64,000 bases of DNA from Longimicrobiales bacterium (lineage in GTDB: Bacteria > Gemmatimonadota > Gemmatimonadetes > Longimicrobiales > Gaopeijiaceae). Location of the stretch: assembly GCA_965249725.1 (NCBI GenBank), contig CBDFMQ010000002.1, positions 928,001 to 992,000 of the forward strand. Reading direction: 5' to 3'. Position 1 is the first letter of the stretch. Each line of letters starts with the position of its first letter. Of this stretch, positions 23,728 to 44,850 are shown in pieces. A model generated the notes under the pieces. It made no database searches and had not been told where the DNA came from. It saw only the letters and a program-made list of their open reading frames with translations. Both the position numbers and the translations under genes were made by a program.

Positions 23728-23761
23728 ACGCGCAGCCAAGGGACCTGACGGCTCAATTCGG
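23728..23761. repeat. Kinase 3'-flank repeat, copy 1 (acgcgcagccaagggacctgacgg.tcaattcgg)
   Basis: Near-identical to 25950-25992 and 36415-36460; the latter directly follows the kinase-2 stop. Confidence 0.88.
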
Positions 23762-24109
23762 CCCAGAATCCATCGAGCGTGGGGACCGTGTTGGGATGTA
23801 AACCTGATCCCCACCTGTATTCGGACACCCGCGATAGGAGTAGCTGTAGACCACTCCCCTCTGATCCACGGAAAATGTCCTTTGGCAGCTCACGGTCTGC
23901 CCGTTTGGCTGATACCAAGGGTCTACCCACGTGTACACCCTCCCACCGTTCGGAAGGGATGCCCGAGCGTCCGGCGCCCCCCACGATGCGATCAGCCGGC
24001 TTTCCTGAAAACCTATCCAGCTTTCCATGTCCTTCTTCAGCGCTGAAGCACACGAAATCTGTAGCAGACAGACGGCACACGCCAAAAGGATTCCGAGTCG
24101 GTGTCGCAT
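23753..24109 (-). CDS. Hypothetical lipoprotein
   Basis: GAGGA RBS; QISC lipobox; SWIG..ES.LIASWGAP motif. Its stop lies inside the kinase 3'-flank repeat. Confidence 0.7.
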   Translation of the reverse strand: MRHRLGILLACAVCLLQISCASALKKDMESWIGFQESRLIASWGAPDARASLPNGGRVYTWVDPWYQPNGQTVSCQRTFSVDQRGVVYSYSYRGCPNTGGDQVYIPTRSPRSMDSGPN

Positions 24110-24134
24110 CGTGTGTTCCTCTCTATGAATCACG

Positions 24135-24184
24135 TTCTCAAGCTATGGGTAATGCTGAGGTTGGGCGATGGCTGGTTGGGACGG
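24135..24184. repeat. Intergenic linker repeat R40, copy 1 (ctcaagctatgggtRatgctgaggttgggcgatggctgg)
   Basis: Five same-orientation copies at 24135, 25220, 25567, 34417 and 40557. Confidence 0.92.
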
Positions 24185-24251
24185 CGCGATCACAAGGCTC
24201 CCCGCCCATCCAATAAGAGCGAAGACTACAGGGCATCATCCTGGGCTGTGG

Positions 24252-24827
24252 CTAGAATCTTATTGAAAGCACGAGTGCAAACCCACCGTCCAACTGCGGG
24301 CCAATGGTCACGCGCAGTCGTTTGAGGGGGACTTCCTCCCAGCGATCGGTCTCCATATGGTGGCCGGCGATCCCACCCACCAGGGCGCCCCCTGCGCCAA
24401 AGATGAGGGCCATGATTGGGGTAAGATCATCATCAAAGAGTTGGCACCCATACTCATCCACAGCCTTGCAATATATGATGGTCCCAACCCCCCCCGCAGC
24501 GAGGCCGATGCCAGCGCCCAACGCAGTATGCGACGTCCGCCCCCGGCTCACATCGAGACGCGTTACGGAGGCCAGGGGACATTCAGTGGTATCGAGGACG
24601 AGCGTGCCAGCGCGGAGCGCCCGATACCTTGTCACCTGCTCGCGAAGCCCACAGCCCGGAGCCGTCACCCGTACACGCGAACCGGGTTCAAGTACCAACC
24701 GCCCTTGGCCGGCGATCTCGGTCGGAGCGCCTCCGAAGATACAGATGAAAACGACGAGGATGGAGCATCCAGAACCCAAGACGGCCCGTTTCTTCACTCG
24801 CCATTTTGGCAGTGCGCACTTCTGCAT
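24252..24827 (-). CDS. Hypothetical exported/membrane protein
   Basis: AAGGAG RBS; GSRVRVT..LDVSRG and Gly-rich hydrophobic hairpin. Confidence 0.7.
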   Translation of the reverse strand: MQKCALPKWRVKKRAVLGSGCSILVVFICIFGGAPTEIAGQGRLVLEPGSRVRVTAPGCGLREQVTRYRALRAGTLVLDTTECPLASVTRLDVSRGRTSHTALGAGIGLAAGGVGTIIYCKAVDEYGCQLFDDDLTPIMALIFGAGGALVGGIAGHHMETDRWEEVPLKRLRVTIGPQLDGGFALVLSIRF

Positions 24828-25219
24828 CTGATCTCCTTCCGTGACGCATGAGTGTCAAAAGGGAAGATGCGTCCAACAGGCTGCCTACTTGATACGTCGT
24901 ATTACTTAGTGGATGGGCGCTGGGTACGTAGATCCCATGATGCTGGCCTACTCCACGATCACCCGTCTCACAGTCTCACTACAAAACGGCATCGGCAACT
25001 GCCCAGGCTCATCCGTCTCCACCTCGACTCCTCATGCTCCTGCATCCTGCTCAGGAACCAATCGTGGGCTTCGTGAGCAGAGTGGATGCCGTAGGTCGGG
25101 GAGAGTCTGAACGTTACCTCCGTGGGGTCCATGCTGCTGCCTGGATACTCGCAGCGGATCGTGAGCCGAGGAGTGCGAATCTGCCGCTCGGTTGAGCCCT
25201 CAATGTCCCACGAGTACAT

Positions 25220-25262
25220 GCCCATGCGCTCAAGCTATGGGTGATGCTGAGGTTGGGCGATG
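25220..25262. repeat. R40 linker, copy 2
   Basis: gcccatgcgctcaagctatgggtgatgctgaggttgggcgatg. Confidence 0.9.
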
Positions 25263-25267
25263 TGACG

Positions 25268-25528
25268 TTAGGGTTCCAACTCTCCTCGGGTGTCATCGGG
25301 ATCAGTGACAATCTGTTGGACCTGTTGGACTACTCGCCTCGCGCTCAAGACACGACCGAGGACACGGTTACCGAGGGCCATCAACCCCATGATGCCGACG
25401 ACCAAACCCACGAGATTGTTGAACGCAAATAACAACACGACAGCGACGATCAACCACCGCCACCGAGCCGCCACCCAATTCACCAGGATTTCGTTCCAGT
25501 CTCGTGATTCCTCACCTGAGATTGTCAT
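25268..25528 (-). CDS. Small membrane protein
   Basis: GGGGAG RBS; two hydrophobic helices; flanked by R40 copies. Confidence 0.65.
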   Translation of the reverse strand: MTISGEESRDWNEILVNWVAARWRWLIVAVVLLFAFNNLVGLVVGIMGLMALGNRVLGRVLSARRVVQQVQQIVTDPDDTRGELEP

Positions 25529-25566
25529 GATCTCGGGTTCACTCCCCTTTCAGAGCCGACGATCAA

Positions 25567-25616
25567 TTCTCAAGCTATGGGTGATGCTGAGGTTGGGCGA
25601 TGGCTGGATGGGACGG
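25567..25616. repeat. R40 linker, copy 3
   Basis: ttctcaagctatgggtgatgctgaggttgggcgatggctggatgggacgg. Confidence 0.92.
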
Positions 25617-25623
25617 ATGCGGC

Positions 25624-43027: not shown

Positions 43028-43211
43028 GTGAAGCTCCTGCTTGATGAGCTTACCACCTCACGGGTCAGACCCATACGCTTACGCGACTCCTCGAATTCAA
43101 CCCTGCGAGGGCCAGTCATTTCTGCTGCGGCCTGCTTCCAGGCTTCGGTTGTTCCAGGCAAGAGAGGTGCGGCGAAGGTTGTGACGGCCATGTGAAGCTC
43201 CTGCTTGATGA
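42884..43211. repeat. Tandem direct duplication, 2 x 164 bp, of the 5' part of the 42683..43027 gene
   Basis: 42884-43047 equals 43048-43211; ORFs 43027 and 43191 share the same N-terminus. Confidence 0.92.
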
Positions 43212-43220
43212 GAGGATGTC

Positions 43221-43333
43221 CTCGGCATCGGAGGATCAGACTGCGGTCAACATCCTATCCGCAAGTCGGGAAGCGCAAGCAGAACCTGCCCAAGCCAGAG
43301 GCTCACCGCGACTGCAGCAATCGCCGGTTATGC
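43221..43333. repeat. Repeat U copy 2 fused to an attC 3' half ending in GTTATGC
   Basis: U at 43221-43284, then gccagaggctcaccgcgactgcagcaatcgccgGTTATGC. Confidence 0.8.
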
Positions 43334-43355
43334 GGCGCGCCCGGTGAGTCGGGGG

Positions 43356-43574
43356 CTAGGAGGTCTTCTCAGACCCTCGAGCAGACTCCGCGAGCAGACG
43401 CAAGGCACTGTTCACGGCCGCCGCATCGCTGAAGACTTCCGCCACGTCGGGCTCAAGTACGATGACGTTGCTGCCCTCAGCAAACCGCTCCGCGTACTTT
43501 CCGCGGACCGCATTGCTGAAGTCATACTCCTCGCGCATGTCGGGCGCCGGGCCCAAGTCAGCTTTCTTGCTCAT
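43356..43574 (-). CDS. BrnA-like antitoxin
   Basis: [23 protein letters not shown]....AVN.ALR.L; overlaps the BrnT gene. Confidence 0.85.
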
Positions 43575-43836
43575 AGTATCTTCGTTCGGTCGTCGTGGCC
43601 GACCGGGCACTGATGATGCGAATCGACTGATCCAACTCGAGGTGCGCCACGACGACGAGTCGACCCAAGTAAGTTAACCCGATCAAGACGAAGCGTGCCT
43701 CCCCGACAGAGTGCTCAGGGTCCGGAACGGTGAGGGACAGAGGGTCACCGAAGGCAGTCGCCGCCTCAGTGAAAGCCACTCCGTGCTTCGCCTCATTCGA
43801 CGCCGCTTTCGCTGGATCCCAGTCAAACTGGAGCAA
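43558..43836 (-). CDS. brnT: BrnT family toxin
   Basis: F.WD..KA.SN..KHGV.F.EA..AF.DP, IRIISAR.AT..ER..Y. Confidence 0.92.
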
Positions 43837-43919
43837 TCAGTAGTACTCGCGGCAAAAGGGCACAGTCGGGTGTTCCAGTCTATAGAATCCGGAAGTCAGA
43901 GTCGATTCTTGCCAGCGCC

Positions 43920-44018
43920 GCATAACGGATGGCGATTCTACTGCGCGGCTAAGATGTGGATCTGACGCGAACGACGCGAGCCAGATGTCTACTGCGACTG
44001 CAGCAATCGCTTTTAGAA
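43920..44018 (+). repeat. Integron attC-like site with mutated R'
   Basis: R'' GCATAAC; body highly similar to 41780-41879; ends gcaatcgctTTTAGAA instead of GTTRRRY. Confidence 0.78.
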
Positions 44019-44160
44019 CGCCGATCGTTAACGCCCATCTCCGACGGCGGGAGCAATCGTCTGCACGAACTAACCCGAACTCTCCCGCACGGCCTTGCCC
44101 GACATAGATGCCCACCTGAGTGGATGCTACTCAAACCTCGCTGGGACTTCGAGCGACTTC

Positions 44161-44553
44161 TCAACCCCCACGCCCTCGGCTCGGAGGACGCTTTCCTCGA
44201 GGCGAAGGAGGTGGCGGAGGCGGAGGCTTAGCCTTTCCCCCCACCGTGTCACGGCGGCGTGTGGGGGCGGTTGCTTTTGTGGCTCCATCGTCCACGAGGA
44301 CGGCTGCGTCTCCTTCTGCTATCCGATCGGCGACCGAGTCTAAGCGCTCCTCAAGAGCGGAGACTTCCTCGAGGAGCCGCTCCCCCCGTCTCCGAACGCC
44401 GCGAGGGACTGTGCCCTTAGCCTCGCAGGCGCTCCGCTCAGCGATGTACGCCGTGAGTCGCGCCCTGAGGGCGCTCCGCTCGGCCATGTGCGACGAGCTC
44501 TCGTCCAGGGCTTTCTGGGCACGATCCCAAACGCCGCCGTCGTCCGTACTCAC
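44161..44553 (-). CDS. Hypothetical coiled-coil / Pro-rich protein
   Basis: GTG start overlaps the stop of the kinase head; GAGGA upstream. Confidence 0.5.
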   Translation of the reverse strand: MSTDDGGVWDRAQKALDESSSHMAERSALRARLTAYIAERSACEAKGTVPRGVRRRGERLLEEVSALEERLDSVADRIAEGDAAVLVDDGATKATAPTRRRDTVGGKAKPPPPPPPSPRGKRPPSRGRGG

Positions 44554-44711
44554 CGATTTTCCTCACGTTTGAGGACCTTTAGCACGACTTTCCCTTCATC
44601 GCGTAGGTCATCAGCCAGGTACACCGTAGCCATCACACCTTCACCAAGCTCACGCTCAATAGCATAGCGTCCTTCTAGTGCGGCATTCAGGCGGGAGACT
44701 GAATCGGACAT
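44550..44711 (-). pseudogene. Orphan N-terminal head of a Ser/Thr kinase gene (53 aa)
   Basis: MSDSVSRLNAALEGRYAIERELGEGVMATVYLADDLRDEGKVVLKVLKREENR*. Confidence 0.9.
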
Positions 44712-44719
44712 CGCTTCTT

Positions 44720-44850
44720 CCTCAGCATCGGAGGATCAGACGGAGACCAACATCCTATCCACAGGTCGGGAAGCGCAAGCGGAATGTGGATCTGAAGCGA
44801 AGTGCGCGAGCCAGATGACTACCGCGACCGCAGTAATCGCTTGCTAGGAG
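44720..44850. repeat. Repeat U copy 3 fused to an attC 3' half
   Basis: U at 44720-44784, then atgtggatctga.gcgaa..gcgcgagccagatg.ctaccgcgac.gcag.aatcgcttGCTAGGA. Confidence 0.8.

Follow-up and report, generated by a model that had tools for sequence, protein, structure and literature searches.

Repeated promoter-like and gene-end modules of an expanded Ser/Thr-kinase family in a Longimicrobiales genome: a probable zone of gene capture and shuffling

How acquired promoterless genes gain a place in a genome, and expression there, is a standing question. In integrons and in clusters of attC sites lacking integron-integrases (CALIN), promoterless small genes are held as cassettes between attC sites. 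With CdiA-CT/CdiI and Rhs, recombination at a conserved stretch of coding sequence attaches variable modules to the start of an expressed gene; what is exchanged there is a homologous toxin tip, and it is the start that the orphan modules lack. Homology-facilitated illegitimate recombination uses one homology anchor, with microhomology at the other end. Work on T4-type phages RB49 and phi1 describes PeSL cassettes, repeated sigma70-like promoter modules in variable regions, at which homologous recombination brings in, removes or exchanges small genes that the modules then express; a dedicated recombinase was not found, and the authors state that there is as yet no evidence for such shuffling in cellular organisms (PMC2839356). 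Putative mobile promoters are stretches of closely similar DNA upstream of unrelated genes, both in one genome and in different genera; the survey filtered out promoters reaching into paralogous coding sequence and proposed no mechanism (PMC3575422). Natural transformation can involve RecA-anchored joining at segments of 3-10 nt (PMC6382021), and in the S. aureus lpl tandem paralog cluster conserved DNA inside island open reading frames (ORFs) is a recombination site (PMC2568036). Here we analyse a 64,000-nt window (contig C3, positions 928001-992000) of an uncultured Longimicrobiales bacterium (genome G000; 4.16 Mb, 3 contigs, 3.9% contamination), in which the ends of Ser/Thr-kinase genes recur around unrelated small genes, here termed cargo. 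In the literature on Gemmatimonadota kinases and paralogs, islands, horizontal gene transfer, integrons, truncated paralogs and promoter capture, we found no description of such a layout, most subscription papers being outside reach. Relatives are labelled G001-G144, fetched loci carry L-numbers, and X1, X17, X18 and X19 are sequencing runs.

Cargo junctions shared between loci and genera

We consider it probable (roughly 60%) that the region is an emergent gene-capture and shuffling zone, in which multicopy promoter/start modules anchor recombination in the absence of a dedicated enzyme system, and selection keeps expressed cargo. The parent kinases are Pkinase plus PD40 proteins, with about 25 copies bearing a whole kinase domain in G000; their 5' and 3' ends recur as orphan heads and tails, the heads often preceded by a putative promoter module, U. 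Two further modules are F3, the start of a gene for a 226-251-aa membrane protein, whose start codon overlaps the kinase stop, and D4, a 45-nt repeat comprising the predicted promoter and the start of a third family (the D gene, ~94 aa, 388 homologues).

Comparison among genomes shows cargo to travel with its joint between different heads, as far as sequence can reveal. At 44574-44161, identity of the junction with its cargo is 96.6%, 98.3% and 96.4% among G000, G002 and G075, whereas the heads before them are 74%, 85% and 81% alike and come with different U subtypes; the core gene surE is 82% identical between G000 and G002. The joint of head and ABM gene is also present in G005 behind a different head, with the cargo at 92% and surE at 70%, and a headless ABM gene in G011 is 95% identical, head and donor sharing 5 exact nt at the joint. 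Within G075, a 1.2-kb two-gene block is 99.6% identical at two loci 2.26 Mb apart, behind heads only 75% alike; its identity ends inside D4, and its left join carries a 42-nt staggered duplication. Microhomology marks two window joints with a donor, being 5 nt exact at the head-ABM joint and 3-4 nt at an F3-cargo joint. Comparison of orthologous loci, which the first-pass annotation of this DNA had proposed, yielded kinase, cargo and empty alleles: at the site corresponding to 31000-47000, G001 and G005 have nothing, G011 has U and an intact kinase, and G002 has U, a head and the same cargo as 44161-44553.

DNA-level similarity is much higher for the promoter/start and end segments than for the gene bodies, both within the genome and across genera. 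Among 12 intact paralogs, identity is 0.81-0.79 over the first 300 nt, falls to 0.68-0.73 across the remaining kinase domain and to 0.41-0.53 in the middle, and is 0.67 in the tail. At four-fold sites, the kinase tail reaches 0.65 and codons 1-50 reach 0.54-0.55, with 0.33-0.44 elsewhere, and F3 codons 1-17 reach 0.87 versus 0.34-0.35 in the body (9 ORFs). The earlier proposal that kinase ends serve as recombination anchors that also supply expression signals gains support from genome comparison and promoter geometry, but not as a kinase-specific property, since two more gene families and attC sites also supply modules.

We propose that capture would proceed in three steps. DNA, either incoming or intragenomic, would be homology-anchored at one module and joined at its other end at 3-10 nt of microhomology; alternatively, deletion would trim a tandem array, and either route would yield a joint of module and cargo. 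Joint and cargo would then be copied to other kinase loci or species, replacing the kinase body, by crossover within the head and within the downstream module; this second step is the one that the comparisons above show. Finally, joints with an intact gene right behind the promoter and a short translated head would be retained, as in-frame fusions or coupled two-cistron units. Such retention of expressed joints may explain why the heads are short, why there is a single orientation and why the tail keeps a Shine-Dalgarno (SD) motif.

Modules, breakpoints and their distribution

The DNA upstream of the kinases has a TTG box, 18 nt and a -10-like box (pattern TTG..-18-nAnnTT for kinase and U), followed either by ATG 5-7 nt on (leaderless type) or by the U leader; the geometry predicted for D4 is TCGCCC-17-TAGCTT, with ATG 6 nt past the -10 box. 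Genome-wide, 102 ATG genes have a -10-like box 5-7 nt before the start, with TTG at a spacer of 17-18 in 30/102 and 0-3 occurrences at each other spacer. These upstream elements fit a sigma70-type promoter geometry that is also present genome-wide. U is 66 nt long, with copies 82-88% identical, and four of the six 54-nt D4 copies in the window are 81-100% identical. Usually upstream of U is a conserved non-coding element, E, of ~100 nt, found at ~30 places (e.g. L075:5619-5721 and G000:C3:1529987-1530086) and almost absent from the window; a systematic link of E-U to the attC crossover core was seen in few of the ~30 E matches and was dropped. U, D4, F3 (with tail) and the head fold no better than shuffled sequences (z -0.0 to +1.6), and the idea that the modules are attC-like or PeSL-like hairpins was rejected for want of a folding signal.

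The nearest named cluster to the F3 family is DUF6090 (27% of members), and Pfam gave no match for an F3-family protein. No Pfam label was present among the 120 listed of the 388 D homologues, and the D protein had no usable Atlas match, with a model pLDDT of 59.6 and a best structural Z of 4.7 that gave no assignment. The D gene is nearly always truncated in these islands (24968-25225; L074:3555-3860), and a public protein, P0075, resembles a kinase head fused to the D protein. Short fragments beside D4 at L004:11675-11842 and 15984-16289 are a possible fourth family of orphan starts; we take them to resemble the start of adenylate-cyclase-type genes.

The backbone order is [E ~100 nt]-U promoter-kinase-tail-F3 gene-D4 promoter-D gene; most of its many copies sit in islands linked to tRNA genes, in G000 and in relatives of several genera, and these islands also contain integron cassettes. 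In about six G000 islands the order attC array, U, kinase or head, tail, F3, D4 repeats. The backbone, or remnants of it with other cargo, occurs in loci of G001, G002, G005, G011, G075, G119, G130, G138 and G144; L028 is an empty bracket (head-tail-F3), L025 has head-cargo-tail-F3 units with in-frame fusions, and L085 is a run of head-cargo units. Long in-frame kinase-head fusions, to ankyrin repeats, a PAS histidine kinase, an EEP nuclease/phosphatase and a lipoprotein, were observed at L038:6156-7805, L035:11204-12787, L034:9472-10407 and G000:C1:694409. A D4 30-mer is present in 8/151 family genomes, three of which, from another genus, carry 4-14 copies, and an F3 27-mer is present in 17/151, where a missing k-mer is no proof of absence because many of the 151 genomes are fragmented. 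Exact D4 and U patterns had 0 matches in viral contigs, on which basis phage carriage of the modules was rejected. In G000, a tRNA gene is found within 15 kb for 10/12 orphan heads (7 loci, 5 of them near a tRNA) and 11/12 D4 copies, compared with 20% of random positions and 5/25 intact kinases.

Attachment sites of integron type form part of the same islands. The attC-type repeat has 42 model matches in the genome and builds an array behind a true IntI (C3:1028960-1029940, L001:10960-11940; TIGR02249, 335 bits versus a cut-off of 265). The complete IntI lies downstream of tRNA-Pro, with an attC array that carries toxin-antitoxin cassettes and insertion sequences (IS), and CALIN-like arrays follow several other tRNAs in G000. 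In the window, 41778-44852 is an integron/CALIN stretch, with attC-type sites flanking small ORFs and IntI elsewhere in the genome; the sites have core AAC/GTT boxes, an L-box stem and complementary cores around a BrnT cassette, their L'-R' spacer presumably being 2 nt longer than the norm. F3-like genes are also found between attC sites elsewhere in G000. A 741-aa kinase-TPR gene stands alone between two attC-type sites at L010:5704-7929, i.e. a kinase as an integron cassette.

A survey of G000 and 66 fetched loci gave 92 kinase starts: the kinase domain is retained in 46, another 42 are orphan heads and 4 are split; three short window heads fell under the score cut. The orphan-head breakpoints range from 41 to 486 nt (median 104; 32/42 within 155 nt), and a fixed breakpoint consensus was rejected, none being present among the 42. 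Neighbouring module pairs lie on the same strand in 165/168 cases. For the ORFs after the breaks, a separately filtered set of 42 breaks in G000 and relatives was used: a well-scoring ORF begins within 130 nt of the break in 27/42, and a ribosome-binding site (RBS) or signal peptide indicative of a true gene start follows 20/42, whereas three null sets gave 15%, 21% and 26% (p 1e-4 and 2e-3 against the two hardest). The first-pass statement that nearly all modules abut a small gene was therefore too strong; exceptions in the window are the head at 33758, whose neighbour is a gene on the opposite strand that meets it with its 3' end, and the head at 44711, after which the ORF scores poorly as coding. 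That no kinase middle portions occur as fragments holds for the window, but reflects in part a detection bias: middle fragments are hard to detect because paralog middles are so dissimilar, and internal or long C-terminal fragments occur elsewhere in G000 (C3:2603532-2603669, C3:2878190-2878507 and C3:1916834-1916926). In the evenly detectable kinase domain in G000, 5'-anchored orphans stand to internal ones at ~8 to 2. A control for other families with orphan 5' ends found kinases dominant, with other multicopy matches present.

The kinases, heads, tail, 3' flanks and U modules first listed for the window were each recovered in place on the minus strand (Table 1), with nhmmer E values of 3e-6 to 1e-45, hence not by chance; the head at 39597 was found by repeat search and blastn instead. 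The three heads and one tail counted at first are real, but the window total is five heads and two tails, heads 30347-30311 and 33758-33730, tail 31436-31387, six D4, and two whole and two half attC-type sites having been overlooked. The orphan tail placed at 25987-26079 is present, but with clear homology over only ~50 nt (26035-25987), and the supposed 3' flank does occur three times, but is coding, comprising the first 10-18 codons of the second gene family. A promoter, head and small gene precede both intact kinases, and over 31982-31333 the order is head, ABM gene, tail, D4. The mini-ORF of the ABM-associated head stops 7 nt before the cargo start, and the head at 44711 forms a 53-aa mini-ORF whose stop overlaps its cargo start.

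Table 1. Modules, cargo genes and anchoring features of the window (window positions)
Feature	Position	Strand	Remark
28-nt copy of part of tRNA-Arg(CCT)	15923..15950	-	att-like far end of island downstream of tRNA; repeat search
F3 module, first ~10 codons of DUF6090-like gene family, truncated	23728..23762	-	
D4 promoter module	24137..24181	-	
D4 (3' part) and parent D gene, truncated after ~70 codons	24968..25262	-	
Cargo, 86-aa membrane protein between two D4 copies	25268..25528	-	87% copy at C3:1521807-1522091 without adjoining D4
D4 promoter module	25569..25613	-	
Cargo, 105 aa, F3- and D4-bounded	25624..25941	-	86% homologue in G011 with neither module
F3 module, truncated at codon 14	25948..25990	-	3-4 nt microhomology to cargo donor
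Orphan kinase tail with SD-like motif for overlapping F3 start	25987..26035	-	contig-bridged
Cargo, alpha/beta hydrolase	26080..27291	-	
Intact Ser/Thr kinase K1, kinase-transmembrane-PD40 propeller, 872 aa	27371..29989	-	
Cargo, 92-aa ABM-like gene, between head and K1	29992..30270	-	
End of U and 37-nt orphan head	30311..30373	-	head 30347-30311
tRNA-Arg(CCT), island anchor	30409..30483	-	
Degenerate D4	31333..31386	-	repeat search, 61%
Degenerate orphan kinase tail	31387..31436	-	
Cargo, ABM monooxygenase-family gene	31476..31838	-	95% in G011 without head; 92% in G005, same junction
Leaderless-type promoter and 122-nt orphan head (31982-31861)	31845..32020	-	5-nt exact microhomology at joint
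U-type promoter and decayed ~28-nt head (33758-33730)	33730..33837	-	abuts 3' end of opposite-strand FAD oxidase gene
D4 promoter module	34426..34468	-	
F3 module after K2, truncated at codon 18	36403..36455	-	
Intact Ser/Thr kinase K2, 923 aa	36452..39223	-	
92-aa gene	39239..39517	-	same gene-kinase pair in G011 without upstream head
Leaderless-type promoter and ~45-nt orphan head (39597-39554)	39554..39639	-	
U promoter module	39771..39825	-	
D4 promoter module	40561..40605	-	
Integron attC-type site	41778..41882	-	
MazE-MazF toxin-antitoxin pair adjoining attC	41938..42518	+	
Cargo, DUF6176-like gene after U; start inside exact 164-nt tandem duplication	42683..43027	-	
U promoter module without head	43219..43284	-	
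Left half of attC-type site, fused to U	43288..43337	-	
BrnT toxin and partner gene, integron cassette	43356..43836	-	complementary R' and R'' cores either side
Integron attC-type site	43917..44022	-	
Cargo, 130-aa ORF, no family	44161..44553	-	96-98% identical including junction in G002, G075
149-nt orphan head (44711-44563)	44550..44711	-	contig-bridged; heads in G002/G075 74-85% alike
U promoter module	44719..44784	-	
Left half of attC-type site, fused to U	44785..44852	-	

The region spans both sides of tRNA-Arg(CCT), and the core genes common to relatives stop at ~14270 and restart at ~47040. At the Rfam gathering score, two tRNAs were the only matches in the window. An ABC transporter cluster of lower GC content (54-56%) occupies 18050-23149 within the island downstream of tRNA-Arg; elsewhere in the genome, 19 tRNA genes form a one-strand array at G000:C3:1903222-1906030.

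Logan contigs from 4 runs, representing 4 studies and 4 host labels, cover 30/30 bins of 25150-45100, one run possibly being the source sample. Among the 32 listed pieces of 5367 from which bridging was read, the hydrolase-tail joint is bridged in three runs (X1, X17 and X19), the head-ABM joint in one (X1) and the succession of cargo, head, U and half attC in one (X19); the F3 joint at 36403, with <31 nt on one side, was left out of this count. The concern that the joints might lack read support thus does not hold for 25150-45100, where contigs span several of them. Two exact tandem duplications, of 164 nt (42884-43211) and 271 nt (16608-17154), are either real or an assembly slip, the former doubling the RBS and some 47 initial codons of the DUF6176-like gene. 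One-base indels at 28238, 30667, 30966 and 41245 are at full depth in X1, X17 and X19 and absent in X18; they hit K1 (codon 584), a lipocalin-like gene and a 271-aa ORF, i.e. frameshifted alleles in three host populations.

Weighing the explanations

Several observations weigh against the capture and shuffling zone proposed here. No recombination event or intermediate was seen, exchange being read from genome comparisons, and although ComEC and DprA genes are present, both are common in control genomes too (10/14 and 11/14). Selection acting on the RBS and the start region could account in part for the high identity of the ends, and ~9/30 of the promoter-geometry matches are probably kinases themselves. 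At 45-55 nt, D4 offers little length for anchoring; only the two window joints for which a donor was found allowed microhomology to be read; no ORF follows 15/42 orphan heads in G000 and relatives; and several of the shared cargo blocks other than IS have ends that do not lie near a module. Module counts in the relatives overstate density because the loci were chosen for matching modules, and the hints of strain-level allele swaps in Logan contigs (X1 beyond 33814; X19 beyond 25975 and 44196) are suggestive only, because a contig may run across a repeat or derive from a different species.

The alternative that survives best, though we consider it unlikely, is ordinary decay of tandem paralog arrays, in which kinase bodies are deleted and their ends survive as promoters, starts or RBS of neighbouring genes, with no role in capture. 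Tandem kinases are common in the genome, head-cargo-intact kinase arrangements occur at K1, K2 and L023, and the gene at 39239-39517 has a kinase partner already in G011; there are empty brackets and kinases with internal deletions, K1 and cargo have frameshift alleles in three runs, and ends are more detectable than middles. Deletion alone does not, however, bring junctions and cargo that are 96-99.6% identical to different paralog heads at distant loci or in other genera, or make block ends fall in a head and in D4, and the synonymous homogenisation of the ends also speaks against it. Since the same joint and cargo stand behind different heads in three cases, plain decay is insufficient, although it may suit the first step: stepwise deletion in kinase-cargo-kinase arrays could explain how joints first form.

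A more ambitious proposal, which we regard as doubtful, is that of an evolved, integrase-free capture system across several co-occurring genera. The kinase-F3-D backbone would then provide community-wide interchangeable landing sites, with a promoter and leaderless start for promoterless genes, integron cassettes included; a specific helper such as the D protein might assist, or recombination might be biased towards joins right behind the start codon.

Use of the modules by a dedicated site-specific system (IntI acting at secondary sites, an island tyrosine recombinase or another factor such as the D protein) appears improbable. The true IntI and the attC-model matches would accord with it, as would the attC arrays that precede U in several islands, the two attC halves fused to U in the window, the tyrosine recombinases adjoining two module loci and the conservation of the D gene as an orphan family tied to the backbone. 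Nothing points to such a system: it is disfavoured because the breakpoints are ragged, scattering over hundreds of nt, and the modules do not form hairpins; the attC halves are cut mid-stem rather than at the crossover core, and the D protein is without a family or fold match.

An RNA-templated origin, by which a reverse transcriptase switches between mRNA templates and the chimeric cDNA integrates, is very improbable. It would agree with the sense orientation of the modules, the one reverse-transcriptase gene of the genome and a fragment of one in L023; it is disfavoured because the promoter boxes are copied along, the copied modules extending beyond the start of any leaderless transcript to take in the -35/-10 region and the E element, and the reverse-transcriptase gene lies in an unrelated neighbourhood far from the module loci. 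Misassembly across repeats in a metagenome-assembled genome, to which the uncultured three-contig source, its contamination and the two tandem duplications might lend colour, is largely refuted and of negligible likelihood, because contigs of four independent studies cover 25150-45100 and bridge several joints, and identical joints recur in independently assembled species and genera.

Significance and relation to known systems

In this bacterial lineage, genes seem to be shuffled, even between genera, by way of the terminal parts of a signalling gene family that has expanded. Datable intermediates are left in the form of the same cargo with swapped heads and of many in-frame head fusions (with lipoproteins and with ankyrin, PAS-kinase and nuclease domains), which offer concrete, testable substrates for studies of promoter capture and chimeric gene birth. 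For annotation, they carry a warning that short 'kinase' ORFs in these genomes are no kinases.

The likeness to integrons lies in promoterless small genes, toxin-antitoxin cassettes and true attC-type sites inside the region; the kinase ends, U, F3 and D4 differ in being no attC sites, given that they do not fold and have scattered breakpoints, and their joints are not site-specific. In contrast to the CdiA and Rhs modules, the orphans here are the starts, and the cargo is unrelated.

Like lpl, the region has a conserved unit that reaches from the 3' end of an ORF into the 5' end of its neighbour, as in tail plus F3, but the central conserved region of lpl shuffles halves of the same family, whereas here the ends are conserved and the middle least, and gene ends bracket unrelated cargo at dispersed loci. 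The scattered joints, two of them with microhomology to a donor, would fit homology-facilitated illegitimate recombination, which was described in laboratory transformation with single anchors, whereas here it would operate with multicopy anchors and is read from genomes. U and four of the six D4 copies show at least 80% identity over at least 50 nt upstream of unrelated coding sequences, as in the definition of putative mobile promoters; they differ in running into the gene start and in belonging to an ordered set with downstream brackets. In design, the zone resembles PeSL cassettes, with repeated modules of promoter-like geometry in variable regions and gene exchange between copies. The differences are that the modules here lie on a cellular chromosome, derive from the predicted promoters and the coding ends of three gene families, and lack a terminator stem-loop, and that they come with translated heads, ragged ends and sharing across genera. 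The zone thus works like PeSL cassettes, but is not itself one.

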